Assembly (NCBI GenBank): GCA_016204995.1
Contig: JACQJR010000002.1
Span: 96,551 to 160,550 of the forward strand
Source: Candidatus Microgenomates bacterium
GTDB taxonomy: Bacteria > Patescibacteriota > Microgenomatia > UBA8517 > JACQJR01
Direction: 5' to 3'
Length of the DNA: 64,000 nucleotides
Shown: positions 14,129-62,529 of the stretch, piece by piece
Position numbering within the stretch: the stretch's first letter is position 1
How the letters are laid out: every line of letters begins with the position of its first letter
Notes under the pieces: generated by a model
What the model saw: only the letters and a program-made list of their open reading frames with translations
The model's database searches: none
What the model was told of the DNA's origin: nothing
Program-made: the position numbers and the translations under genes

Positions 14129-14683
14129 TTAGACCTGCGTTAGCTCTGCTTCTTTTAATTTTCCTATCTCTTCAATTTTATTAACCATCTCATCAGTTAT
14201 TTTTTGCACTCTTTCTTCTCTTTGGAATTTTTCATCCTCACCAAATTCCTTTTTCTCAAATAGCTTGTGAACCTCTTCCATTGCCTCTTGTCGGACGCGA
14301 CGAATCATAATTTTACCATTTTCTAATTTTTGACTTAACAGCTTAACATAATTTCGCCTGTCTTCTGCCGTCAAAGACGGCAAGTTAATTCTAATTGCCT
14401 CACCATCAGCCATTGGCGTTAAACCAATATTGGCTGTTTCAATGGCCTTTTTAATTTCATAAGTAATTGATTTATCCCAGGGAGAAATAATTAAAGTCCG
14501 AGGATCAGGAGTGGCAATACTGGCTAGTTCCACAATTTTTAGTCTCGTTGTCCCACCGTAAGCGTCAACGATAATATCGGCAACTAAGGCTGGAGTGGCT
14601 CGACCGGTACGGATAGAGGAAACATCACTGCGTACCGCCGTAACAGCTTCTTCCATTTTAGCTCGTATACCATCCTCATTCAT
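14129..14683 (-). CDS. frr: ribosome recycling factor
   Basis: RRF family pattern (RINLPSLTAEDRRNYVK..RRVRQEAMEE). Start chosen at the internal Met that matches the family N-terminus. Confidence 0.85.
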   Translation of the reverse strand: MNEDGIRAKMEEAVTAVRSDVSSIRTGRATPALVADIIVDAYGGTTRLKIVELASIATPDPRTLIISPWDKSITYEIKKAIETANIGLTPMADGEAIRINLPSLTAEDRRNYVKLLSQKLENGKIMIRRVRQEAMEEVHKLFEKKEFGEDEKFQREERVQKITDEMVNKIEEIGKLKEAELTQV

Positions 14684-19447: not shown

Positions 19448-21532
19448 CTAGGACGGAAGTTGCGGTTTTTTCCAGGAAGCGAACTTACAATTTGGATAGC
19501 GGGAACAGCCGAAAAATTTACGGTGTTTTTTAGTTAGTCTGACAATCACCTCACCCTTCTTACATTCCGGACAAGTCATACCAGCCTTTTCCACATATTG
19601 AGCTTTCCATTTACAATCTGGAAAACGGGAACAGGACAAAAATTTACCGAACCGGCCAATTCTAATCACCTGTTTCCCTATTTTACATTCGGGGCACATC
19701 TCACCGGTTTCCTGATTTTCAATCTTCACCCTTGCCGCTTTTTCCGATAATGCCAATTTTTTCTCAAACGGCTGCCAAAATTCGCGGATGACAGGCACCC
19801 ACTTTTCCTTACCATTAGCAATTTGATCTAAATTATCTTCCATCTTGGCTGTAAATTGATAATCAAAAACCTCGGGGAAATTTTTCAACAAGAAATCATT
19901 GGTCGCTATTCCCAAAGAGGTAGGTTTAAATTTACCCTCTACCTTTTCCACATATTGCCGGGTACTGATAGTAGAGATTGTAGGGGCGTAAGTAGAAGGC
20001 CTACCAATTCCTAATTTTTCCAGAGTTTTAATTAAAGAGGCCTCATTGTAGCGAGCCGGCGGCTCGGTAAATTTCTGCTGCGGTTCTATTTTAATTAATT
20101 GAAGCTGCTCGTTTTCTGCCACGTCAGGCAATTGTGGTTCTTCTTTTTCCATTCTGCCATAAACTTTTTTCCAACCATCAAACTTTCTCACTTGGCCTTT
20201 TGCTTGCAGTAAATAGATCTTAGATTTTAGAGCTTGGATATTAGATTGAGCGTTGACATTGATTGTCGTTTCGTCATAAATGGCATTATTCATTTGACAC
20301 GCCACAAATCGTTTCCAAATTAACTCATATAATTTTTCTCCATCATTTCCCAATTTGGCATTGGACATTGGTAATTGGCCATTGGAAATTCCAACTTCAG
20401 TTGGACGTATCGCTTCATGTGCCTCTTGAGCAACTTTACTGGTAACTTTATAAAAACGGAATTTTTCCGGCACATATTCCTTACCATATTTACTGGTGAT
20501 AAAATCACGGACTTTTTGCACTGCTTCCGGAGCCAGATGCGTAGAATCTGACCGGTGATAAGTAATTAAACCCTCTTCATATAATTTTTGAGCGATAGAC
20601 ATCGTTCGTTTGGCACTCCAAGAAAATAAACGGGCAGCGGCTTGGGTCATGGTAGAAGTAGTAAAAGGCGGGTAAGGATTTTTATGCACTTCCTTTTTCT
20701 CCACCGATTTAACTTGATAACTAGCTTTCTCTAAATCAGTTACTGCGACATCCGCCTGCTCTTTATTCTTAATCTCCGCTCTCTTATCATCAATTTGTAT
20801 TAGCTTAACCAAAAAGTCCGTCGCGGGTGACACGGGGAGGGGGTCCCCCAAGAAGGGGTCCCCTTGTGGGTTTTTTTGGGGGAAAACCCGGGGCAGGACC
20901 CGCAAGGACGATACTTCCGCTAAGATCTCCCAATATTCCTCCGGTTTAAAAGCCTCTATTTCCCGCTCCCGATCCACAATTAAGCGGACTGTTACGGATT
21001 GCACCCGACCGGCTGATAGACCCACTCTCACTTTTTTCCACAAAAGTGGTGATAATTTATAACCAACAATTCTATCCAGCACCCGCCGCGCTTGTTGAGC
21101 ATCTACCAAATCCATGTCCAAAGAACGCGGATGAGCAATGGCATTTTTAACTGCGCTTTCCGTAATCTCGTGGAATACAATTCTGTTCATTGGCTTATTG
21201 GTATTATTGGTATTTATTTCGCCAGAAACAAACTTGTTTATTTGTAGTATTTCGCCTACATGGTAGGCGATAGCTTCTCCTTCCCGATCAGGATCAGTCG
21301 CTAAATAAACATTTTTAGCCTTGGTTTTTAATTTTTTAATTTCATCTACGTTGGGTTTCTTACTAGGCATGGCTACATATTCCGGCTGAAAATCATGTTC
21401 CAAATCCACTCCAAATTTACTTTTAGGCAAATCCTCTACGTGACCGGCCGTTGCCCGGATAGCAAAATCGTCACCCAAAAAACGAGTCAAGGTACGAGCT
21501 TTGGTGGGCGATTCAACAATAATTAAGTCCAT
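19448..21532 (-). CDS. topA: DNA topoisomerase I with C-terminal zinc ribbons
   Basis: Toprim N-terminus (MDLIIVESPTKA), active-site region, C-terminal C4 zinc ribbons (CPECK..C). Carries a GC-rich in-frame insert at ~20818-20911. Confidence 0.9.
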   Translation of the reverse strand: MDLIIVESPTKARTLTRFLGDDFAIRATAGHVEDLPKSKFGVDLEHDFQPEYVAMPSKKPNVDEIKKLKTKAKNVYLATDPDREGEAIAYHVGEILQINKFVSGEINTNNTNKPMNRIVFHEITESAVKNAIAHPRSLDMDLVDAQQARRVLDRIVGYKLSPLLWKKVRVGLSAGRVQSVTVRLIVDREREIEAFKPEEYWEILAEVSSLRVLPRVFPQKNPQGDPFLGDPLPVSPATDFLVKLIQIDDKRAEIKNKEQADVAVTDLEKASYQVKSVEKKEVHKNPYPPFTTSTMTQAAARLFSWSAKRTMSIAQKLYEEGLITYHRSDSTHLAPEAVQKVRDFITSKYGKEYVPEKFRFYKVTSKVAQEAHEAIRPTEVGISNGQLPMSNAKLGNDGEKLYELIWKRFVACQMNNAIYDETTINVNAQSNIQALKSKIYLLQAKGQVRKFDGWKKVYGRMEKEEPQLPDVAENEQLQLIKIEPQQKFTEPPARYNEASLIKTLEKLGIGRPSTYAPTISTISTRQYVEKVEGKFKPTSLGIATNDFLLKNFPEVFDYQFTAKMEDNLDQIANGKEKWVPVIREFWQPFEKKLALSEKAARVKIENQETGEMCPECKIGKQVIRIGRFGKFLSCSRFPDCKWKAQYVEKAGMTCPECKKGEVIVRLTKKHRKFFGCSRYPNCKFASWKKPQLPS
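20818..20911. repeat. GC-rich low-complexity multi-palindromic in-frame insert in topA
   Basis: GGGGTCCCC x2, CCCC-aagaa-GGGG, TTTTTTTGGGGGAAAACCCGGGG. Roughly 70% GC versus a ~38% background. Encodes PRVFPQKNPQGDPFLGDPLPVSPATD and keeps the frame. Confidence 0.5.
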
Positions 21533-31573: not shown

Positions 31574-33637
31574 ATGCCACAAAAACTAATTGCCTTTTTC
31601 TACTACGCTTTGTTTTTCTTTACTCCGCTTTTATTTAATAAAGCCAACTCCGAACTTTTTGAACTGCCAAAAATGTACTTTGTCTGGGTAATTACTATTA
31701 TCATTGTCAGCTTGTGGCTAGTTAGAATAATCGCCGAAAAGCGAGTTATTTTTCAGCGAACATTTTTAGATATTCCTCTAATTTTATATCTAATATTTCA
31801 ATTAATTAGCACCTACTTTTCAATTGATCAATACACTTCTATTTGGGGATATTATTCCAGACTTAACGGCGGATTGATATCAACTATTAGCTATTTACTA
31901 CTTTATTGGGCCTATATTTCAAATTTAACCACCCAAAATACCCTATCTGCTCTTAAATTCCTGTTAATTTCTGGTTTACTAGTAGCTTTATGGGGGATTC
32001 CTAGTCATTTTGGCTATGACCCGAATTGTGTTCTTTTTGGCTACAACCTAACCACCAATTGCTGGAGCACCCAATTTGTACCAACTGAACGCATCTTTTC
32101 CACTTTGGGTCAACCAAATTGGCTGGCCAACTGGCTCGTAGCGCTCATGCCATTAACTTGGGCCATGTTTTTCACCTCTAAGATCAAAAATCTAAAATCT
32201 AAAATCTTTTATCTATATTTAAGTCTTATCCTAATAATAGCTATCATCTTCACCAGAAGTTCCTCCGGTTTTCTGGGATTAGTGGTAGCATTAGTAGTTT
32301 TTACCACCCCGCAAATTCTACACTTATTCAAGAAGGGGAAATTTCTTGTTTGGTTAACAATCTTACCCATTTTAACTATGTCTATATTTTTTGTGCAAAA
32401 ATTACCCAAAGTTGTCAATGGACTAAAATCTTGTACAGAAATTTTGACTTCTGAAGGCGAGTCGCACATTAATAGTAATATTACTCCTTCTAGTGACATC
32501 CGCTGTATTGTCTGGAAGGGTGCTTTTGATATATGGCGGCATTATCCATTAATTGGTAGTGGGCCGGAAACTTTTGCTTATTCCTATTACCAATTCCGTC
32601 CGGCTATCCATAACTTAACCAGCGAATGGGACTTACTTTATAATAAAGCCCATAATGAGTATCTTAATTTCTTGGCTAATAGTGGCCTAGCTGGTTTAAC
32701 AACATATTTAATTTTAATTATTATGGCTTTTTGGCTATTAGGCTCCTCGGCTCTTAGGAAAAACCCAACAGCCCTGCCTGCGCAGGCAGGCCAACGGCCT
32801 AATGCCCTAATAGCCTGGGGTTTACTCGCTGGTTTTGCCAGCCTTCTCGTCACCAACTTTTTCGGCTTTTCCGTCGTTGCCACTCAACTGCAATTTTTCT
32901 TATATCCGGCAATGGTGATAGGGCCACTGGGCTCTTGGGACGCTAGGCAATCGGACAATCAAAGGCCTAACGCCCTTCAAGTCATTTTAATTTTTCTAGT
33001 ATTATTTATTACCATCTTTCTGTTAGTTAAAATCTATCATTATTACCAGGCCGATCTTCATTACAGCCGGGCCCAAACTTTAGAAGATAATCAACAATAT
33101 GTGGATTCATTATCCGAAATTAGAAAAAGTCTCAACCTGCGACCAAATGAGCCATTATATAAAAACGAATTATCAGTTATTCTTTCATCGCTATCATTCT
33201 TAACTGCCAAAACCGATAGTGATCTTAGCGCCCAAATGACCAATATTGCTATCACATCTTCCGATCAAGCGCTAGCAACTTCGCCCTACAATCTTAATTT
33301 TCTCAAAAGTCGGGCCAGTATGTTTATTAAACTCTCCCAGCCGCAAGAGGCGATCAAAACCTTAGAATATGCCCAAAAACTCGTCCCTACCGAGCCCAAG
33401 ATTGCTTATAATCTAGGTCTAACCTATATACAACTGGATCAAAATGATCAAGCCATTCAGGAGTTTAAAAAAGCTACTCAACTTCGCCCCTTATACCGCG
33501 ACGCCTGGTTAGCACTCGGACTGGCCCAGTGGCAAAAAGGTGATAAAACTACCGCCCGCCATACTTTAAATTACATTTTGCAAAATATTGACTCCCAAGA
33601 TAAAGAGGTTCTAGAACAGCTCAAAAAGTGGAAATAA
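31574..33637 (+). CDS. O-antigen ligase (Wzy_C)-like polytopic membrane protein with C-terminal TPR repeats
   Basis: Many TM helices, a large periplasmic loop, C-terminal TPR-like repeats. Contains the in-frame palindrome CCTGCCTGCGCAGGCAGG (LPAQAGQ) and 9-mer repeat inserts. Confidence 0.5.
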   Translation: MPQKLIAFFYYALFFFTPLLFNKANSELFELPKMYFVWVITIIIVSLWLVRIIAEKRVIFQRTFLDIPLILYLIFQLISTYFSIDQYTSIWGYYSRLNGGLISTISYLLLYWAYISNLTTQNTLSALKFLLISGLLVALWGIPSHFGYDPNCVLFGYNLTTNCWSTQFVPTERIFSTLGQPNWLANWLVALMPLTWAMFFTSKIKNLKSKIFYLYLSLILIIAIIFTRSSSGFLGLVVALVVFTTPQILHLFKKGKFLVWLTILPILTMSIFFVQKLPKVVNGLKSCTEILTSEGESHINSNITPSSDIRCIVWKGAFDIWRHYPLIGSGPETFAYSYYQFRPAIHNLTSEWDLLYNKAHNEYLNFLANSGLAGLTTYLILIIMAFWLLGSSALRKNPTALPAQAGQRPNALIAWGLLAGFASLLVTNFFGFSVVATQLQFFLYPAMVIGPLGSWDARQSDNQRPNALQVILIFLVLFITIFLLVKIYHYYQADLHYSRAQTLEDNQQYVDSLSEIRKSLNLRPNEPLYKNELSVILSSLSFLTAKTDSDLSAQMTNIAITSSDQALATSPYNLNFLKSRASMFIKLSQPQEAIKTLEYAQKLVPTEPKIAYNLGLTYIQLDQNDQAIQEFKKATQLRPLYRDAWLALGLAQWQKGDKTTARHTLNYILQNIDSQDKEVLEQLKKWK
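32772..32789. repeat. 18-nt perfect palindrome CCTGCCTGCGCAGGCAGG in-frame in the Wzy-like membrane protein
   Basis: Encodes ALPAQAGQ. Flanked by GGCCTAATGCCCTAATAGCC 9-mer repeats. Confidence 0.6.
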
Positions 33638-36655: not shown

Positions 36656-37030
36656 CTAACTAAACTTTTTCCAAGTAGAGTGAAGCTTATTTAGCCTCCG
36701 GGAAAGTACCTTATATCTATCAATTAAGTCATCACAATCCTCTACTTTAATCCGAGTGAATGTTTTAGCTACGATTTTAATCTCCCGCAGATGGGTAATA
36801 ACTTCATCGGAAGAGCCAATGGCCATGGAAAGGAAGCGACAAAATTCGCGTGGAGAAGTTTTCTTACCGAATCCTTCGGCAATTTGAGGTGCAATCTTTT
36901 CCGCGGCTTCATTTAACTGATATCTCAATCTTTTGTAGATCGGTGGTAAGAGATTTGTTAAACTATAAACTGGATCAAGTAATTCTAAAGATAAATTGTA
37001 AACTTCCAAGTCTGTTACATCCTTAATCAT
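36656..37030 (-). CDS. four-helix-bundle protein (TIGR02436 / 23S rRNA intervening-sequence protein family)
   Basis: LEVYNLSLEL..LRYQLNEAAEKIAPQIAEGFGKKTSPREFCRFLSMAIGSSDEV matches the family pattern (QL.RAA.SI..NIAEG..R.S..EF..FL.IA.GS..E). 65 nt downstream of the ATPase, same strand. Confidence 0.65.
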   Translation of the reverse strand: MIKDVTDLEVYNLSLELLDPVYSLTNLLPPIYKRLRYQLNEAAEKIAPQIAEGFGKKTSPREFCRFLSMAIGSSDEVITHLREIKIVAKTFTRIKVEDCDDLIDRYKVLSRRLNKLHSTWKKFS

Positions 37031-41004: not shown

Positions 41005-41367
41005 ATGAGCGATTTTACCAAATTAAAAATATGGCAGAAATCTCACGAATTATCATTGGAGGTTTATCATCTTACTGCAAAACTACCTAAAGAAGAAACT
41101 TTCGGCTTAATGTCACAGTTACGCCGAGCAGCAGTATCAGTAGAATCTAATATTGCCGAGGGCGAATCAAGATTTAGTAGTAAGGATAAACTAAATTTCT
41201 TTATCCAAAGTCGCGCATCTATCGGCGAGGTCCAGACACAATTACTTTTAGTAGCTGATTTATATCAGCAATTAAAGAGTAAAGCTTTACAATTAAAAGA
41301 AGAATATACTAATCTTTATAAACAAATAAATAGTCTTGTTTCTTATAGAAGAAAAAACGATTTATGA
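41005..41367 (+). CDS. four-helix-bundle protein (23S rRNA IVS protein family)
   Basis: KLKIWQKSHELSLEVYHLT..QLRRAAVSVESNIAEGESRFS family pattern. Inserted between def and fmt. Confidence 0.65.
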   Translation: MSDFTKLKIWQKSHELSLEVYHLTAKLPKEETFGLMSQLRRAAVSVESNIAEGESRFSSKDKLNFFIQSRASIGEVQTQLLLVADLYQQLKSKALQLKEEYTNLYKQINSLVSYRRKNDL

Positions 41368-42431
41368 ACCCTAACAGCCCAAGAGCCCTGCCTGCGCAGG
41401 CAGGCCAACAGCCCAAGAGCCCTCCTCTCGTTTTTTTCAGCACACCAGACTATGTGCTGCCAGTATTGGAACAGCTAAAAAATGCCGGTTATGAAATTGC
41501 AGCTATTGTTTCCCAGCCACCCAAACCAGTTGGCAGGAAACAAATTTTAACACCAACTCCTACTGCTGTTTGGGCTAGCCAAAATAACATCCCCAATCTT
41601 GATGCTTCACCTAAAACTTTAATTGAACCTTTACAAAAAATTGGCGCGACCATTGCCATTCTGGCTTCCTACGGCCGGATTATTCCGCAGGCAATTATTG
41701 ATGTTTTTCCACAAGGCATCTTAAATATTCACCCCTCACTTTTACCAAAATTTCGCGGTGCTTTACCGGTAGAAGGAGCATTGGTAGCAGGCGAAAGCGA
41801 AACCGGCGTGACTATTATCAAATTGGATGCCGAAATGGATCATGGTCCCATTGTTTCTCAAATTACCGAAAAAATTAATAAGGATGACACTAAAATTACT
41901 TTAAGAAAAAGATTATTTGAAAAAGGGGCCGCTGAATTAATTAAAGTCTTACCAGACTACTTAGCTGGCAAAATCGCACTGCAAGAACAAGATCACACTC
42001 AAGCTACTTATACCACTTTGATGAAAAAAGAATACGGCTTTATCCCGCCGCAATATTTGGAAGCTGCATTTAAAGGTGAGACTTTAGAGGAAAAATGGCC
42101 CATCCCATTCATAAAAGACTTTTCCCTAGTACCTAGTGCCTATTCCCTTCACAATTTTATCCGTGCTATTAACCCCTGGCCCGGAGCATACACTGAAGTA
42201 ATACTACCAATAAATACCAATACTACCAATAAGCAAAGCTTGGCCCTTCGGGCTAATTACCAATCAACTAAAAAAAGATTAAAAATTCTGAAATCTCACT
42301 TAGAAAACCTAGTAGCCCAAGAGCCTAATGCCCCAACAGTCCACTTAGTGCCTGACTTGGTCCAATTAGAAGGCAAAAATCCCGTTTCTTGGCAACAATT
42401 TAAACAAGGCTACCCCAACTTCACTTTCTAA
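41364..42431 (+). CDS. fmt: methionyl-tRNA formyltransferase
   Basis: Formyltransferase core (NIHPSLLPKFRGALPV) and a C-terminal Fmt domain. The N-terminal extension contains the CCTGCCTGCGCAGGCAGG palindrome (ALPAQAGQ). ATGA overlap with the upstream gene. Confidence 0.85.
   Translation: MNPNSPRALPAQAGQQPKSPPLVFFSTPDYVLPVLEQLKNAGYEIAAIVSQPPKPVGRKQILTPTPTAVWASQNNIPNLDASPKTLIEPLQKIGATIAILASYGRIIPQAIIDVFPQGILNIHPSLLPKFRGALPVEGALVAGESETGVTIIKLDAEMDHGPIVSQITEKINKDDTKITLRKRLFEKGAAELIKVLPDYLAGKIALQEQDHTQATYTTLMKKEYGFIPPQYLEAAFKGETLEEKWPIPFIKDFSLVPSAYSLHNFIRAINPWPGAYTEVILPINTNTTNKQSLALRANYQSTKKRLKILKSHLENLVAQEPNAPTVHLVPDLVQLEGKNPVSWQQFKQGYPNFTF
41387..41404. repeat. 18-nt perfect palindrome CCTGCCTGCGCAGGCAGG in-frame at the fmt N-terminus
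   Basis: Encodes ALPAQAGQ. Flanked by CAGCCCAAGAGCCC repeats. Confidence 0.6.
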
Positions 42432-44993: not shown

Positions 44994-45365
44994 TTGGGGG
45001 TTATGAGCGAGAATAATGGATTTAGATTTGAAGAATTACAAGTTTACCAAAGAGCTTTAAATTTTGCGAATGAAGTTTATGAAATCAGCAACCAATGGCC
45101 CAGAGAACATGTTTTTTCTTTAACAGATCAATTAAGAAGAGCATCACTCTCTGTAGCCTTAAATATTGCTGAAGGAGCAAGTAGAACTAAATTAGAATTT
45201 AAAAGATTTATAACTATTAGTAGGGGTTCCTGTCATGAATGCATCCCTATTATAGAAATAGCTTTTAGGCAAAAATTAATTGATATAAAAAGAAAGGAGG
45301 TATGGTTAAACGAGGTTACAACATTATCTAAAATGTTAAGTAAACTTAAGAGTTCAATAGTTTAA
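44994..45365 (+). CDS. four-helix-bundle protein (23S rRNA IVS protein family)
   Basis: ELQVYQRALNFANEVYEIS..QLRRASLSVALNIAEGASR family pattern. Inserted between tRNA-Thr and rpmG, flanked by 9-mer tandem repeats. Confidence 0.65.
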   Translation: MGVMSENNGFRFEELQVYQRALNFANEVYEISNQWPREHVFSLTDQLRRASLSVALNIAEGASRTKLEFKRFITISRGSCHECIPIIEIAFRQKLIDIKRKEVWLNEVTTLSKMLSKLKSSIV

Positions 45366-45780: not shown

Positions 45781-46059
45781 GTGATTGTAGCGAGCTATAC
45801 TTATTTCGTATACTACTTTTACATTCTCCGCAGCCTTAAAAATGGAAAGTTATACCTCGGTCAAACTTCCGACCTAAAAGCAAGAGTTAAATCCCACAAT
45901 AATGGAGAAAATAAAGCAACAAAACCAAATATCCCTTATGAACTTATCTTTTATTCTGCTTTCAAAGATGAAAAGGATGCAATTAATTGCGAAAAATATT
46001 TTAAGACAACAGCAGGCTGGAAAAGAATTCATAAAATGCTTGAGAACATAATAAAATAA
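45781..46059 (+). CDS. GIY-YIG nuclease-domain protein (small, stand-alone)
   Basis: YFYILRS..GKLYLGQTSDLKARVKSHNNG..E.Y.K matches the GIY-YIG (YxY..G.YIG.T.DL..R...H) pattern. The N-terminal ~10 codons of the ORF may not be translated. Confidence 0.55.
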   Translation: MIVASYTYFVYYFYILRSLKNGKLYLGQTSDLKARVKSHNNGENKATKPNIPYELIFYSAFKDEKDAINCEKYFKTTAGWKRIHKMLENIIK

Positions 46060-54679: not shown

Positions 54680-55219
54680 TTAGGATTGTTTCGAATTTAG
54701 TGCTTCGGATTTCGTGCTTAAGATATAAACTAATTTAGACATATTTGCCTGTAATGTACCAGTTAACTGGTACATTGGCGCGTTTAATACCCCCAGCAGT
54801 TGTCCAAATAAAACTTCGCGGCCCGGCAAACGCGATAATTTCAGAAGTGCTGCCGCGTCCTGAACCGTGCCGGAAATAATTCCTGCCTTGAGAGCTAGTA
54901 ATTCAAATTCTTTGATAAATTTACCCAAAACTTGAATTGGTGCCAGCTCATCTTGCTGGGCAATTACTATCGCAGTCTGACCAGTTAAAGACGAAACAAT
55001 ATTATCTGATAATTCTTTTAAATTAGAAGCTACCAGCGATCTTTTCAGAAGAGTATTTTTAGCCACCAGCATTTTACTGCCAGCCTCGCGCAACCGGCGG
55101 CGTAAAGTCTCCTGCTCACTAACTTTCAAGCCAGTTAAATTTACCAAAACGAGCGATTTAGCGTCATTAATTTTGGCTGTTAAGTCGTTTACAAAAATGA
55201 TTTTTTCTGGTTTTTTCAT
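54680..55219 (-). CDS. rplJ: 50S ribosomal protein L10
   Basis: L10 family pattern. Immediately upstream of rplL on the same strand. Confidence 0.85.
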   Translation of the reverse strand: MKKPEKIIFVNDLTAKINDAKSLVLVNLTGLKVSEQETLRRRLREAGSKMLVAKNTLLKRSLVASNLKELSDNIVSSLTGQTAIVIAQQDELAPIQVLGKFIKEFELLALKAGIISGTVQDAAALLKLSRLPGREVLFGQLLGVLNAPMYQLTGTLQANMSKLVYILSTKSEALNSKQS

Positions 55220-55270: not shown

Positions 55271-55445
55271 AAAGATCTAAATTCTAATATCTAAAATCTA
55301 GATGAGGTGCCTCGGTGAGATTTATTACGTTCATGTAACTGAACGTAACTCACTGTCTTAAGCTTTCATTTATTTTAACACACAAAGGCCCCTGTTGCAA
55401 GTTGCACACAAGGGCCGCCGAGAAGTCAAGTCCGGCGAAGCCGGG

Positions 55446-55553
55446 CTATTCCTCCTCCTCTTCCTCATCCTTTTTCTCTTCTTCCTCCTCCTCTTCCTCT
55501 TCATCCTCATCTTCATCATCAGCTAATTTCATTACGACATCATCTTGCATCAT
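55446..55553 (-). CDS. possible acidic leader micro-ORF (35 aa: MMQDDVVMKLADDEDEDEEEEEEEEEKKDEEEEEE)
   Basis: Not in the track. Strong SD AGGAGGTG 7 nt upstream. Directly downstream of the Element X copy 2 promoter, upstream of the structured rplJ leader. Confidence 0.3.
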   Translation of the reverse strand: MMQDDVVMKLADDEDEDEEEEEEEEEKKDEEEEEE

Positions 55554-56148: not shown

Positions 56149-57429
56149 TTATGCCACTCTTTCCTTCAAAGCTTCATATGACTTCACTAAATAGTCTTCT
56201 GCCTTTTTAGCTAATACTTCTTTTCTCTTACCGGTGGCTAAATCCGCTTGTTTTTGCTGCTCTTGGGCAAGCACTCGCAAATAAGCAATTTTGTTGGCTT
56301 GAAAAATGGGAATACGGAACAGTTCGGCATAAAGCTCGCGGGTGACATTTTGCAATTCCACATTCTCTGATCTCTTACTATCACTTCTTTTCAAATATTC
56401 AATTTCCAGACTGGCTACCAAACGCGGCTCAAAAGCCAGTTTGACATTTTTGCGCATTAAACTATAAAAGCTAGTTAAAATTCTTTTTGTCCCTTGCCAA
56501 TTTCCTTCGGTCTCACCGGTCGTAATGGCTTTAACAAACATCTCTGCCGCTTCCTTAGCAATTAATAAAGAGGTACCAAATTGAGCTTTAAGGTAACTCA
56601 CAAAAGCCTTCTTAAAAGCGCCTTCCTCTTTAAACTTCCTGGCTCGCCACCAATCCAGTTCCAGTTTAGCAATTAGTTTCGGCTCAAAATCAAATTTGCG
56701 CACACTATCGCCTGCCCCAAAACGGCGGCGGCGGCGGGAATAATCAAGCAAAGCTTCGCGAAACTTGGCCCGGTCAAAATCCGGCAGTAAACATTCATCC
56801 CACCAAATTTCGGCATAATTTGTTTGCCAGGGCATAAAACCGGATAATCTTTCTTCACCGGAAGTTCTGATTAATAAATCAATGTAGGGATAGGGTTGGT
56901 CATTAGTGTCCAAATATGAGGCAAATAATTTTTCGTCTATGGCCTCGACTGGAATTTTATCATCCACGATTTTGCGAGTGACCCGGACAATTTCATCATG
57001 CCCTCCATAATCAATGGCTAAATTAAAAACGTAAGATTTATTATTTCTGGTATCATTTTCTGCTTGCCGAAGTTTTCTAGCCAAACTTTCCGGCAACCTA
57101 TCTTTACGGCCCAAATGAATAATGCGCACATCATCTTTTTTAGCTTCACTGATATGTTGATCAAGAGCTTTTTCAATAATTTTTAAAATGCCGCCGGCTT
57201 CTTTTTCACCCCTTGACCAATTCTCGGTAGAAAAAACCCAGACGGTAAAAGTATGGATGCCAAAATCTCGGCAGGCGCGGGCTATTTCGCCAATCGCTTC
57301 TCCGCCTTGTTCATGGCCTTTATGGATTGGTAAACCGCGAGCCCGCGCCCAACGACGGTTGCCGTCGCAAATTAAAGCGACGTGGTGAGGTACTACAATA
57401 TCTGAAGGCAAGGACAAGTCTGGCGGCAT
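56149..57429 (-). CDS. uppS: undecaprenyl-diphosphate synthase fused to a ~185-aa C-terminal repeat domain
   Basis: N-terminal cis-prenyltransferase core (HVALICDGNRRWA, FSTENWSR). C-terminal extension with two FEP(K/R)L(I/V)A.LE(L/I) repeats and no TM. Confidence 0.8.
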   Translation of the reverse strand: MPPDLSLPSDIVVPHHVALICDGNRRWARARGLPIHKGHEQGGEAIGEIARACRDFGIHTFTVWVFSTENWSRGEKEAGGILKIIEKALDQHISEAKKDDVRIIHLGRKDRLPESLARKLRQAENDTRNNKSYVFNLAIDYGGHDEIVRVTRKIVDDKIPVEAIDEKLFASYLDTNDQPYPYIDLLIRTSGEERLSGFMPWQTNYAEIWWDECLLPDFDRAKFREALLDYSRRRRRFGAGDSVRKFDFEPKLIAKLELDWWRARKFKEEGAFKKAFVSYLKAQFGTSLLIAKEAAEMFVKAITTGETEGNWQGTKRILTSFYSLMRKNVKLAFEPRLVASLEIEYLKRSDSKRSENVELQNVTRELYAELFRIPIFQANKIAYLRVLAQEQQKQADLATGKRKEVLAKKAEDYLVKSYEALKERVA

Positions 57430-61284: not shown

Positions 61285-62529
61285 CTATTTTAGCCATCTT
61301 CCTTTAAGTTTTGCGTATTGGCCGTCGTTAATGGCTGTTCTTACTTTTTCCATCAGCTTAGTAAAAAAATAAACGTTATGATACGTGGCTAGTCGGTAAG
61401 CTAATAGTTCGCGGGTGCGAAAAAGATGATTGATATAGGCTCGAGTATAATTCTCACAGACCATACAAGCGCAATTTTTGTCTAAAGCCAGACTAGAACT
61501 TGCCCATTGGCCTTTGGTGATATTAAAGCGAAAACGGTTTTTCAGATTACCTATTGGCGGCGAAACAAAAATCTCACCCATCCTTGCCAGTCGCGTTGGT
61601 ATTACACAATCAAAGGTATCAATACCTAAACTTATGATATTTAAGATATCATCAATTTCACCTACTCCCAACATATGACGTGGCTTTTGCGGATCACTAT
61701 TAGTAGTAGTTAGCTCTACTATCTCATACATATTTTGCTTGTCTTGATGTGCTCCGCCTAGAGCCACGACAGAAAAATTTTGATCTACAAATTTGATGGA
61801 TTCCAGCCTTAAATCGGTAAACCGGCCGCCGTGCGTTACTCCATATAACAACTGGTCTTTTTTATGATGGGCTTTTTTAGACCTGGCCAGCCAGCGATTA
61901 GTCCTTTCAAGCGATTTTTTAGTTTCTTCATAATTGGCCCTTGGCGACTCTAAATCGTCAAAGCCCACTATTAGGTCCGCCCCTAAATCTTCTTGAATTT
62001 TAATAGAACTTTCAGGCGTAAGCGAAGTTAACTTGCCGTCAAATGGAGAACGGAAAACTACGCCGCGATCATTTATTTTAATTACCATTGGCGCTATATC
62101 CCCGCCTCGACTTGCCGTCTTCGGCGAGGCGGGTCGCTCTCGTGGACCATCTTTTCGTCCAGAGGACGATCGGCCTTTGGCCGACAAAAGCTTAACATCG
62201 CCGCCGATGCCTAAAGAAAAAACCTGAAATCCGCCGCTATCTGTCATAGTCGGCCTGCCTGCGCAGGCAGGTCCATTCCAAGCCATAAATTTAGCCAAGC
62301 CGCCTTGTTTTTTAATGATCTCCTCGCCCGGGCGAAGGTGCAGATGATAGGTGTTAGCCAGGACTGCTTCTACTCCGATCTCATTTAAATCTTGACTGTC
62401 CAAAGCCTTGACTGTGGCCATGGTGCCAACCGGCAAAAAGGCCGGAGTATGAATTATGCCATGGCTAGTTTTAATTTCACCAGTACGAGCTGTACCTTTA
62501 CTGCGTTTTAAAATTTTGAAAGTTGCCAT
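61285..62529 (-). CDS. tgt: queuine tRNA-ribosyltransferase with in-frame GC-rich inserts
   Basis: LPVGTMATVK, DSGGFQ, zinc site (C.C..C). The palindrome CCTGCCTGCGCAGGCAGG sits just before DSGGFQ, and a ~100-nt GC-rich multi-palindromic insert encodes GRSSSGRKDGPRERPASPKTASRGGD. Confidence 0.85.
   Translation of the reverse strand: MATFKILKRSKGTARTGEIKTSHGIIHTPAFLPVGTMATVKALDSQDLNEIGVEAVLANTYHLHLRPGEEIIKKQGGLAKFMAWNGPACAGRPTMTDSGGFQVFSLGIGGDVKLLSAKGRSSSGRKDGPRERPASPKTASRGGDIAPMVIKINDRGVVFRSPFDGKLTSLTPESSIKIQEDLGADLIVGFDDLESPRANYEETKKSLERTNRWLARSKKAHHKKDQLLYGVTHGGRFTDLRLESIKFVDQNFSVVALGGAHQDKQNMYEIVELTTTNSDPQKPRHMLGVGEIDDILNIISLGIDTFDCVIPTRLARMGEIFVSPPIGNLKNRFRFNITKGQWASSSLALDKNCACMVCENYTRAYINHLFRTRELLAYRLATYHNVYFFTKLMEKVRTAINDGQYAKLKGRWLK
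62254..62271. repeat. 18-nt perfect palindrome CCTGCCTGCGCAGGCAGG in-frame in tgt
   Basis: Read on the minus strand it encodes GPACAGR, immediately N-terminal to the catalytic DSGGFQ. Confidence 0.6.

Follow-up and report, generated by a model that had tools for sequence, protein, structure and literature searches.

Described systems of palindromic DNA within genes

The closest described systems are the Rickettsia palindromic elements (RPEs) and the intragenic REPs. As summarised in PMC10969869 and PMC3733652, the RPE families (RPE-1 to RPE-10; Ogata et al. 2000, 2002) are dispersed, with 44 copies counted for R. conorii in the first report. RPEs, like intragenic REPs, code for 20-30 residues, and replication or repair genes are frequent hosts (PMC3733652, PMC10969869); the intragenic REPs are tagged with GTAG or CGTC (Di Nocera et al. 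2013, PMC3733652). MITEs, and palindrome-associated elements derived from IS200/IS605, can also create in-frame fusions (PMC10969869).

Two GC-rich blocks, one in topA and one in tgt, were analysed in a stretch of 64,000 nucleotides (the window). By analogy, they appear RPE-like as hairpin-forming inserts of ~100-150 nt, in frame and stop-free, in housekeeping genes of a host-dependent bacterium with a reduced genome; they would likewise be translated into additional surface segments that the fold is judged to accommodate, and insertions at orthologous sites are common to different species. Hairpin formation was supported by z = -4.0 to -4.3 for tgt and by z = -2.4 plus a covarying stem for topA, both blocks interrupt functional ORFs with neither frameshift nor stop, and in the predicted structures both lie at fold-compatible surface positions. 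However, RPEs are dispersed, whereas no second copy was found here in the 64-kb window and ~124 kb of insert-bearing genomes, and the topA module occupies one site. The host phylum, Patescibacteria, and the strong GC-richness of the blocks relative to the genome are further differences, and the likeness drawn here is one of architecture.

The GC clusters of yeast mitochondrial DNA, including the in-frame copies in var1, are short GC-rich palindromes in an AT-rich genome whose presence is polymorphic; they are organellar and occur in many dispersed copies of defined classes. The blocks seem analogous to them as short GC-rich palindromic units lying in frame in protein genes.

With the intragenic REPs the blocks share small GC-rich stem-loops, single or grouped, within genes, the tgt block being a cluster of such hairpins. 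Nevertheless, they have no unpaired GTAG or CGTC tag (the CGTC in the 3' motif of three of the six topA inserts is part of a stem), they are not high-copy, and no RAYT gene is present among the 70 ORFs of the window. A REP or BIME is a single stem-loop of 20-40 bp with an unpaired tag; the topA module is a multi-hairpin unit of 90-117 nt with one long-range closing stem, and the mini-hairpins of tgt measure 15 nt and are untagged. The resemblance to MITEs is that of short, structured, non-coding DNA, but terminal inverted repeats of 15-30 bp, a target-site duplication, a parent IS or transposase and a family of copies were not found in the DNA searched.

Two GC-rich blocks in frame within topA and tgt

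The preliminary description had presented both blocks as extra, in-frame, hairpin-forming and compositionally aberrant segments that encode loops within intact essential genes, and all of this was borne out. Their limits were shifted, from 20818-20911 to 20816-20911 in topA and from 62098-62200 to 62089-62184 in tgt. The features of topA were the following:

19448..21532, reverse strand: topA, type IA DNA topoisomerase, 694 aa, intact (ORF and translation)
20816..20911, reverse strand: GC-rich block of topA, 32 codons, residues 208-239, SSLRVLPRVFPQKNPQGDPFLGDPLPVSPATD (refined limits)
20828..20896, reverse strand: 23 codons without counterpart in the nearest ortholog, P0002 / L001 (codon-level alignment)
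20898..20909, reverse strand: closing stem, 5' arm, GUCCUUGCGGGU in mRNA sense (MFE and centroid folds; six-sequence consensus with compensatory changes)
20816..20828, reverse strand: closing stem, 3' arm, ACCCGCGACGGAC (folding; six-sequence consensus stem)
20892..20901, reverse strand: 5' DNA motif of the topA-insert family, GGGTCCTGCC (GGTCCTG.C invariant in six assemblies)
20825..20831, reverse strand: 3' DNA motif of the topA-insert family, GTCACCC (CACCC invariant in six assemblies)
20839..20863: two small palindromes, GGGGGTCCCCC (20839-20849) and GGGGTCCCC (20855-20863), with AAGAA between them, encoding GDP..GDP
20845-20858: CCCCCAAGAAGGGG in the topA block
20871..20893: T7G5A4C3G4 homopolymer runs, whose sense strand forms a GGGUUUU..AAAACCC hairpin

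The topA product matched at 100% an NCBI 'type I DNA topoisomerase' of a 'Candidatus Microgenomates bacterium' and contained the Toprim, Topoisom_bac and Zn-ribbon domains (PF01751, PF01131, PF01396). Its block, in frame and free of stops, had been given as ~70% GC in a gene of ~38% GC; the strong GC-richness was confirmed (0.667), but the background of the gene was 41-42% (0.41 in the remainder). GC3 reached 0.81 in the block against 0.37 in the remainder of the gene, and its codons (CCC six times, CGG twice) were atypical for a genome of 40% GC. Only 0.005% of the 96-nt segments of the 64-kb window (mean 0.404, sd 0.071) were as GC-rich as the topA block and 0.1% as GC-rich as the tgt block, and the sole stretch comparable to the two in GC at this segment length was a tRNA cluster.

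When folded and compared with dinucleotide shuffles, the topA insert gave z = -2.4 for sense RNA (6/200) and z = -2.1 for DNA (4/200). The block is only moderately more structured than its composition predicts, and the multi-palindromic look attributed to it is partly due to low-complexity G/C runs.

The features of tgt were the following:

61285..62529, reverse strand: tgt, tRNA-guanine transglycosylase, 414 aa, PF01702, intact (ORF and translation)
62089..62184, reverse strand: GC-rich block of tgt, 32 codons, residues 116-147, SAKGRSSSGRKDGPRERPASPKTASRGGDIAP (refined limits)
62101..62133: 33-nt hairpin CCCGCCTCG-N15-CGAGGCGGG with an inner GCCG/CGGC stem (0 expected by chance; folds)
62155..62184: two tandem 15-nt mini-hairpins, TCGTCC-AGA-GGACGA and TCGGCC-TTT-GGCCGA, encoding SAKGR|SSSGR

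The tgt product, too, matched at 100% a protein of a 'Candidatus Microgenomates bacterium', and the block was again in frame and stop-free, with a GC of 0.635 against 0.42 in the gene. By codon position, the difference was 0.72 versus 0.44 in GC12 and 0.47 versus 0.38 in GC3; the GC excess thus lies mostly in positions 1-2, which makes this block less clearly 'foreign'. The stems of the two mini-hairpins, of which TCGGCCTTTGGCCGA occupies 62170-62184 and GGAC..GTCC is also present, are one compensatory change apart, and these were the only such 15-nt units in 1.37 Mb of DNA searched. The insert fold gave z = -4.0 to -4.3 (0/200 shuffles), and the structure of the tgt block thus clearly exceeds what its composition would give.

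Homologous inserts in the topA genes of relatives

GC-rich inserts of 90-117 nt were found in the same TopA loop in five other assemblies (L203, L204, L209, L210 and L211), each from a different sample, and a sixth relative, P0094, carried a 33-nt version as a clean GC-rich insertion within the ancestral KSQK|TKNK loop. The GC of the inserts was 0.66-0.70 against 0.39-0.43, and their GC3 was 0.64-0.81 against 0.34-0.42 for the genes, being high in all six lineages. The window insert and that of L209 shared 61% identity, where the null was 46% (z = 5.3, 0/300), and L209 kept one small-palindrome unit of the topA block (GGGGACCCC). The window insert was at most 61% identical to any other, with flanks ~63% identical, so cross-assembly chimerism of the topA block is implausible. 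The insert changes at about the same slow pace as the whole gene (0.61 vs 0.63), third positions changing faster (0.41).

The ends of the topA insert were conserved as DNA (GGGTCCTGYC ... CGYCACCC). The 5' motif was read in frame 2 in four sequences, in frame 0 in L203 and in both frames in L211, whose insert contained a 19-nt internal duplication of this motif; the 3' motif was read in the window in a frame different from that of the other five. Together with the GC3 contrast, this places the topA anomaly at the nucleotide rather than the protein level. The interior differed widely between inserts, in sequence as in length (33-117 nt). All six inserts were multiples of three with no in-frame stop, the other frames often containing stops, and four of them had the in-frame peptide motif RVLP..SP..LP.S.HP in common.

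The preliminary description had considered that orthologs might show a conserved native segment. Indeed, a related segment was present in 11 of the 120 TopA orthologs; however, these were spread over at least four separate clades and the closest relatives lacked it, the loop measuring 8-12 residues in 82/120. The window TopA clustered with the insert-less P0002 and P0003 (bootstrap 98/100), separately from the main insert-carrier clade (bootstrap 82/100). This distribution indicates an old or recurrent block and not a private recent acquisition, and from the ortholog comparison the block is probably an insertion instead of the ancestral state. It is a member of a family of GC-rich modules of 33-117 nt, specific to topA, that occurs in at least four Microgenomates TopA clades, at a single codon position in a domain II beta-hairpin. 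A recombination tract from the carrier clade was rejected, since the flanks of the window's topA match the insert-less L001 and not L209.

A covarying stem closes the topA insert

Across the six sequences, 88% of the cells of the 18 consensus pairs of the closing stem were paired, against 42-58% when the partner was slid. Double changes were observed in nine pairs, and the covariation score was 0.48, a value reached by 0/500 shuffles, compared to 0.09-0.19 for slid partners. On the sense strand, G-U pairs (6) outnumbered A-C pairs (2) in the consensus stem. The stability of the orthologous inserts did not exceed that expected from their composition (z = -0.2 to -1.0 against dinucleotide shuffles), so the structural case for the topA insert rests on the six-sequence covariation. 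The covariance models of Rfam 15 gave matches at chance level only (E >= 1.6).

Predicted structures and the tgt loop in relatives

Both inserts were predicted by AlphaFold2 as disordered loops in coil conformation, situated between confidently predicted elements. In TopA, the insert lies between predicted strands 199-209 and 239-247, with mean pLDDT of 48-60 in 10-residue blocks and 94-95 in the flanking blocks, and stands in place of residues 227-236 (10 residues) of E. coli TopA. In Tgt, pLDDT was below 50 over residues 98-145, the block means of the insert being mostly 30-35, and T. maritima Tgt, like E. coli TopA a homolog of solved structure, has 2 residues where the window Tgt has 43. 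The models suggest that the inserts occupy surface positions compatible with the fold. Y325 of TopA, presumably the catalytic Tyr, was invariant in the ortholog alignment, as were Cys353, Cys355, Cys358 and His384 of Tgt, which we take to be zinc-binding residues.

No homolog of the tgt block was detected among 120 orthologs, so its history is inferred from its anatomy alone; a metagenome search with the Tgt alignment retrieved distant Tgt proteins only (37-43% identity). The loop ranged from 24 to 75 residues among orthologs, and in L206, L207 and L208 it contained unrelated hairpin inserts (z = -2.2 to -4.2). At a second Tgt hotspot, three distinct palindromes were spread over different lineages. 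The tgt block itself is a group of small GC-rich hairpins private to its lineage, arisen partly by tandem duplication of a 15-nt unit.

Searches for further copies and for a source

Exact and 3-mismatch searches of the block cores detected no second copy of either block in the 64-kb window (~6% of a roughly 1-Mb genome). The topA module was found nowhere else by blastn-short or by an nhmmer profile of the six inserts in 1.37 Mb, which includes the ~124 kb from insert-bearing genomes; a weak match in L006 corresponded to a conserved PilT coding motif. The motifs GGGTC..GACCC and GGGGWCCCC showed no enrichment across 0.8 Mb of low-GC loci. The termini of the module showed no inverted repeat beyond GGGT/ACCC plus lineage-specific extensions, no target-site duplication or flanking direct repeat was recognised around the insert, and the 70 window ORFs scanned contained no transposase, RAYT/Y1_Tnp or IS200/IS605 domain.

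A viral source was also discarded: the termini pattern gave 75 IMG/VR matches, almost all of them high-GC phages (median GC 0.65), and these are attributed to chance since none matched the insert profile. Inteins and introns were rejected for the small size and the lack of catalytic features, and capture of an rRNA or tRNA fragment for the lack of an Rfam match. In the literature, no description of such in-frame palindromic inserts was found for CPR or Microgenomates.

Origin of the blocks

Our preferred reading, held with about as much confidence as doubt, is that both blocks descend from palindromic selfish DNA akin to RPEs or intragenic REPs and persist as relics that are translated and tolerated, selection having confined them to permissive loops. 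Palindromic DNA would enter a coding region or be duplicated locally within it, and purifying selection would keep only the stop-free copies of a multiple of three where the protein tolerates ~30 extra disordered residues, the ribosome reading through the insert. The topA module is conserved at the nucleic-acid level, with fixed pairing termini and a variable interior, and its stem would be kept by selection on mRNA or DNA structure or by arm-to-arm templated repair; the tgt loop collects unrelated hairpin inserts in relatives. That the DNA is 'foreign', as proposed earlier, is less clear for tgt, with its excess in positions 1-2, than for topA, with its GC3 of 0.81 against 0.37 and its frame-independent motifs. 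Weighing against this reading are the single copy of each block in the DNA searched, the missing terminal repeats and target duplication, the 70 ORFs without a transposase, the ordinary stability of the orthologous topA inserts and the tgt block with no homolog among 120 orthologs. The persistently high GC3 across lineages whose TopA proteins differ by ~40% is unlike a decaying neutral relic, which hints at function or at GC-biased maintenance.

Such a function could be that of a cis-acting structure, either a domain of the mRNA with a role in ribosome pausing or mRNA decay or a supercoiling-sensing DNA cruciform, kept by selection with the peptide as a by-product. The DNA motifs conserved across frames, the covarying stem with its excess of G-U pairs on the sense strand (6, against 2 A-C), the high GC3 in all six lineages, the slow change of the insert (0.61, against 0.63 for the gene and 0.41 for third positions) and the strict topA-specificity and single copy in the DNA searched all favour it. 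Nevertheless, a module found in 11/120 orthologs only and missing from the closest relatives is dispensable, its interior varies from 33 to 117 nt, the folding z-scores of the orthologs fall short of significance and no Rfam family matches, and we regard this origin as rather unlikely. Ordinary lineage-specific loop expansions (slippage, local duplication or template switching), with Pro/Gly/Ser/Arg-rich linkers kept or tolerated, are unlikely too, though several features of tgt agree with them: its excess in positions 1-2 (0.72 vs 0.44, with GC3 just 0.47), its tandem 15-nt duplication, its unique, single-copy block and the 24-75 residues of the loop among orthologs, to which the 19-nt duplication in L211 may be added. 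Under expansion, GC-richness would come from amino-acid composition, and the hairpins would be incidental or by-products of quasi-palindrome mutagenesis. It accounts poorly for the GC3 of 0.81 and the atypical codons (CCC x6, CGG x2) of topA, for related sequences at one site in separate clades with motifs conserved in different frames, and for a tgt fold whose stability goes far beyond what composition would give (z about -4).

The preliminary description had also allowed for a sequencing or assembly artefact in topA, and the homopolymer-run look of that block and the presence of the tgt block in one assembly only would agree with a chimeric join or a low-complexity misassembly. This option was overturned for topA by five other assemblies, each from a different sample, that carry homologous inserts at that very codon position; both blocks are moreover in frame, without stops and exactly within variable loops, which makes an artefact hardly credible. 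It is equally improbable, to a very high degree, that the inserts are left untranslated by ribosome bypass or by excision from the mRNA at the closing stem. A stem-closed GC-rich module in an AT-rich coding sequence does resemble bypass and intervening-sequence architectures, and precedents for bypassing exist in T4 gene 60 and the mitochondrial 'byp' elements. However, neither process would need the multiple-of-three length and open frame that the six topA inserts and the tgt block all have, and four of the topA inserts share an in-frame peptide motif (RVLP..SP..LP.S.HP).

A bolder proposal, which we consider improbable, is that the topA module is a non-coding GC-rich hairpin element with no ORF, which has colonised one topA codon position time and again across Microgenomates or is actively maintained there, either as a homing-like, site-specific element with no known enzyme or as a conserved regulatory RNA or DNA domain within a coding loop; the many different hairpin inserts in the loops of CPR housekeeping proteins would then represent an undescribed, CPR-wide process of palindrome insertion.

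If the relic reading is true, protein-coding palindromes are not a Rickettsia oddity: they would have a part in shaping essential enzymes in the Candidate Phyla Radiation too, a sizeable and little-understood share of bacterial diversity whose members have tiny genomes. The TopA loop module would offer an alignable example for gain versus loss, for selection on nucleic acid versus peptide and for the source of the DNA, across hundreds of metagenome-assembled genomes. For annotators, in-frame GC-rich islands in CPR genes are not necessarily misassemblies.

The 18-nt palindrome of tgt

The blocks had also been seen as larger relatives of the 18-nt palindrome, a copy of which lies in tgt, outside both blocks:

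62254..62271: 18-nt palindrome CCTGCCTGCGCAGGCAGG in tgt, encoding PACAGR, residues 87-92

Neither block contained a copy of it when up to 3 mismatches were allowed. The 18-mer occurs as a dispersed unit in multiple copies, whereas neither block has a second copy in the 1.37 Mb searched. A link of the 18-mer to PF05635 or GIY-YIG ORFs was rejected: only 9 of 119 loci carry one, 3 of them within 300 nt, so no systematic link exists. The palindrome corresponds to an exact 6-residue gap relative to T. maritima Tgt, and AlphaFold2 gave pLDDT < 50 over Tgt residues 86-91. The similarity of the blocks to the 18-mer was weakly supported, the part of the claim that stood being a CCTGCC/GGCAG stem in some of the topA-insert orthologs: the CCTGCC..GGCAG hairpin in the insert of L210 resembles the outer stem of the 18-mer, and decayed versions of it were observed in L209 and L204.

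GC-Rich Blocks in Intact topA and tgt Genes

Two GC-rich, hairpin-forming stretches lie in frame within two genes of the window:

19448–21532, minus strand, topA (694 aa, intact)
20816–20911, topA block (32 codons, residues 208–239)
61285–62529, minus strand, tgt (414 aa, intact)
62089–62184, tgt block (32 codons, residues 116–147)

All the features listed for these blocks in the preliminary description were found in the sequence. Their GC content was 0.667 (topA) and 0.635 (tgt), against a mean of 0.404 (sd 0.071) for a window of 40.4% GC; only 0.005% and 0.1% of the 96-nt windows, respectively, were equally GC-rich, the sole peer being a tRNA cluster. Against 200 dinucleotide-preserving shuffles, the tgt block was much more stably folded than expected from its composition (RNA, z = -4.0; DNA, z = -4.3; 0/200), and the topA block showed a moderate excess only (z = -2.4 as RNA, 6/200; -2.1 as DNA, 4/200).

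Both proteins were 100% identical to NCBI proteins assigned to "Candidatus Microgenomates bacterium", which places the window in a metagenome-assembled genome of the CPR/Patescibacteria, and the TopA tyrosine and the Tgt Cys/His positions, which we take to be the catalytic tyrosine and the zinc ligands, were invariant across the ortholog alignments. The topA insert takes the place of 10 residues of E. coli TopA (227–236), a β-hairpin of domain II. In T. maritima Tgt, 2 residues stood opposite 43 of the window protein, and an exact 6-residue gap opposite PACAGR. Both inserts were predicted as coil in the AlphaFold2 models (62 sequences for TopA and 26 for Tgt), with a block-mean pLDDT of 48–60 between strands at 94–95 in TopA, and values below 50 for Tgt residues 98–145 (block means over the insert mostly 30–35).

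The topA Insert Recurs in Orthologs

The corresponding loop, bounded by EEYWEI.. and F.V.L, was surveyed in the 120 best TopA orthologs. It had 8–12 residues in 82 of them and 22–39 residues in 11, and in these 11 the motifs RVLP/GVLS (start) and SRHP/VAHHP (end) recurred. The DNA of five carriers from five different samples (L203, L204, L209, L210, and L211) was examined, and all five contained a 90–117-nt insert at the identical codon position, with a GC of 0.66–0.70 against 0.39–0.43 for the genes and a GC3 of 0.64–0.73 against 0.34–0.42. Identity between the window and L209 inserts was 61% (null 46%, z = 5.3), which is close to the nucleotide identity of the whole gene (63%) and well above that of third positions (41%). 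A chimeric assembly is implausible, since the window copy was distinct from every other and had flanks of no more than about 63% identity. The sequencing or assembly artefact first considered for topA is thus contradicted by its counterparts in other samples; the block is real and is not private to the window genome.

The conservation of these inserts is at the nucleotide level. Two motifs were invariant in the six-insert alignment, GGTCCTG.C close to the 5′ end and CACCC close to the 3′ end. Four sequences read GGTCCTGYC as V-L-P/S and L203 reads it as G-P-A; L211 contained it twice, 19 nt apart, once per frame; the frame of CACCC in the window differed from that of the other five. The insert ends paired in a 5+8-bp closing stem (RNAalifold), whose outermost pair was CG, GC, or AU depending on the lineage and which was extended to about 12 bp in the window (GUCCUUGCGGGU / ACCCGCGACGGAC). 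Double changes affected 9 of the 18 consensus pairs, paired cells amounted to 88% (42–58% with the partner slid), and the covariation score was 0.48 (0.09–0.19 slid), a value reached by 0/500 shuffles, with the structure derived from the same six sequences that were scored. Given their composition, the orthologous inserts were not unusually stable (z = -0.2 to -1.0).

Gain or Inheritance of the topA Insert

In a neighbour-joining TopA tree built without the loop, the window protein grouped with the insert-less P0002 and P0003 (98/100 bootstraps), and a separate clade (82/100) comprised eight carriers and four insert-less members; 22-residue versions of the loop occurred in two further clades. 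This distribution calls for either repeated gains at a single site or numerous losses. In P0094 (locus L212), the 22-residue version was due to a clean 33-nt GC-rich insertion (..CACCGGGTCGGAGACCCTCAGGGGTCGGAG..), starting with the CGGGTC common to these inserts, between KSQK and TKNKGDE of an otherwise ancestral loop. The loop of the nearest relative (L001, the P0002 locus) was AT-rich and showed no remnant of the element, and no recombination tract wider than the window insert was seen, the flanks matching L001 and not L209. Separately, the ortholog P0053 carried a 24-residue insert (LPVDALPETAVSLQAGTRQALQAG) downstream of this loop, whose LQAG..LQAG resembles LPAQAGQ, the translation of an 18-nt palindrome found elsewhere in the window.

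When 1.37 Mb of DNA, including 64 kb of the window genome and about 60 kb from other carriers, was searched with a profile of the six inserts, the six topA copies were the only matches. No second copy of either block core was found within the window, no convincing match to the topA insert in IMG/VR, and no transposase, RAYT (Y1 transposase), or IS gene among the 70 window ORFs. As far as seen, with about 6% of the genome covered, the topA insert is not a dispersed repeat.

The tgt Block and Its Loop

The tgt block was unique among 120 orthologs. It consisted of a 33-nt hairpin (62101–62133) and then two mini-hairpins of 15 nt in tandem, TCGTCC-AGA-GGACGA and TCGGCC-TTT-GGCCGA, whose stems are one compensatory change apart and which encode SSSGR and SAKGR; this points to a local duplication of a five-codon hairpin unit. 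Both blocks had been regarded as foreign, which agrees with the GC3 of the topA block (0.81 against 0.37) and is less clear for tgt, because its GC excess fell chiefly on codon positions 1–2 (0.72 against 0.44; GC3 0.47 against 0.38). The Arg codon CGA occurred five times in it.

The Tgt loop was a hotspot, with 24–75 residues among the orthologs and at least four other insert families. Three of these inserts, examined as DNA, were long imperfect hairpins (L206, z = -2.2; L207, -2.3; L208, -2.5, with a 15-bp perfect outer stem), mutually unrelated at the DNA level and in two of three cases not GC-rich. A second Tgt site, between W-N-G and P-T-M-T-D-S-G-G, held the 18-nt palindrome in the window, an AT-rich 26-nt perfect hairpin in L208 (z = -4.2), and other short inserts (DGPHFAKASRGKP and similar) in other lineages.

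The L206 (10343–10483) and L207 (1831–1968) inserts, from a Levybacteria-like group, were hairpins of about 140 nt whose 5′ arm was rich in purines and 3′ arm in pyrimidines; they gave no blastn alignment, nor another copy across 11–21 kb of flanking DNA. The insert peptide of this group was common to P0238, P0138, and P0214, and shorter in P0131 and P0191.

Interpretation of the Blocks

Both blocks are real protein-coding palindromic inserts, a known kind of feature, of which no description for Patescibacteria (CPR) was found in the searched literature. The best-supported reading is that palindromic DNA was inserted into permissive loops of TopA and Tgt, where it would be tolerated and translated. 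Selection would act as the filter on the inserts: the lengths of all six topA inserts were multiples of three, and these were open in the gene's frame only. An artefact and a lack of translation are unlikely, each being highly improbable. In function, the blocks are analogous to Rickettsia palindromic elements (RPEs) and intragenic REPs, small GC-rich stem-loops (PMC10969869, PMC3733652). Nevertheless, they were without tags, terminal inverted repeats, or target-site duplications and, unlike the multi-copy RPEs and REPs, had no second copy in the portion of the genome covered; their membership of these families is not established, and the single-copy result weighs most heavily against reading them as mobile elements.

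Recurrence at the same site in separate clades and long retention of the GC-rich ends and closing stem, two unusual properties of the topA insert, make a functional nucleic-acid element a rival, which we consider rather unlikely beside the filtered, tolerated insertions. In the case of tgt, slippage or duplication in place competes seriously with this reading, although a minority possibility overall.

The 18-nt Palindrome and Other Hairpins

The 18-nt palindrome (CCTGCCTGCGCAGGCAGG) had been proposed as a relative of both blocks, a kinship weakly suggested by the CCTGCC..GGCAG hairpin that some of the topA-insert orthologs carry at their 5′ end. It was located in the window as follows:

922–939, two mismatches
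32773–32790, exact
41387–41404, exact
62254–62271, exact

At least 119 stretches from GTDB genomes contained an exact copy (L004–L122), the listed loci being mostly from Patescibacteria of many classes, with some Bacteroidota and others. The palindrome stood as a discrete unit between flanks that were unrelated and for the most part low in GC, and its sequence was not mentioned in the searched literature. Its IMG/VR matches were mostly in high-GC phages and are probably due to chance.

In five CPR genomes, the palindrome occupied one position in a truncated duplicate of the 5′ part of tRNA-Gln (..GCCGGGTCG, palindrome, TCTAATGGTAGGAC..; L030 at 1735, L040 at 3540, L045 at 372, L041 at 6792, and L112 at 727). 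The duplicate lay 40–400 nt from the intact tRNA-Gln, with a small ORF in between that had an HNH-like ending by eye in L040 (CANCHRIRT), was GIY-YIG-like in L030 (phmmer match), and was similar by eye only in L112, which suggests a link with homing-endonuclease insertions.

Within the window, two partial copies were compounded at 860–946 (GGCCTGCCTGCTGGCGCAGACAAGCCTGCGCAGGCAGG, encoding GLPAGADKPAQAGQ), near the N-terminus of a Top1B-family protein (ORF 818–1882, bacterial topoisomerase IB). The 41387 copy lay 20 nt past the stop codon of the gene at 41005–41367, which belongs to PF05635 ("23S rRNA intervening sequence protein"), and within the called N-terminal extension of fmt; hence, this copy may be intergenic and the start of fmt wrongly placed. 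Three PF05635 genes (36656–37030, 41005–41367, and 44994–45365) lay within 10 kb together with a GIY-YIG gene (45781–46059); such genes had no general association with the palindrome, being present at 9 of the 119 listed loci. At 32741–32844, in a Wzy_C/TPR protein (ORF 31574–33637), a repeated QRPNAL-coding segment (CAACGGCCTAATGCCCTAA) adjoined the palindrome. Since the 32773 and 41387 copies had flanks in common (..GCC[CTGCCTGCGCAGGCAGG]CCAAC.GCC..), the repeated unit may there exceed 18 nt.

Additionally, five GC-rich hairpins of 15 nt, with a perfect 6-bp stem and a 3-nt loop, were detected in the window, at 14367, 20052 (topA), 55799, 57353, and 62170, against 0.2 expected from mononucleotide shuffles; that at 20052 simply encodes the conserved TopA motif EPPAR. 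A GC-rich segment (0.625) with two hairpins (GGCCCCTGT..ACAAGGGCC and CCGGCGAAGCCGG) was located at 55387–55467, outside all listed ORFs of at least 90 aa and between 54680–55219 (ribosomal protein L10) and 56149–57429, and could represent a terminator or a leader.
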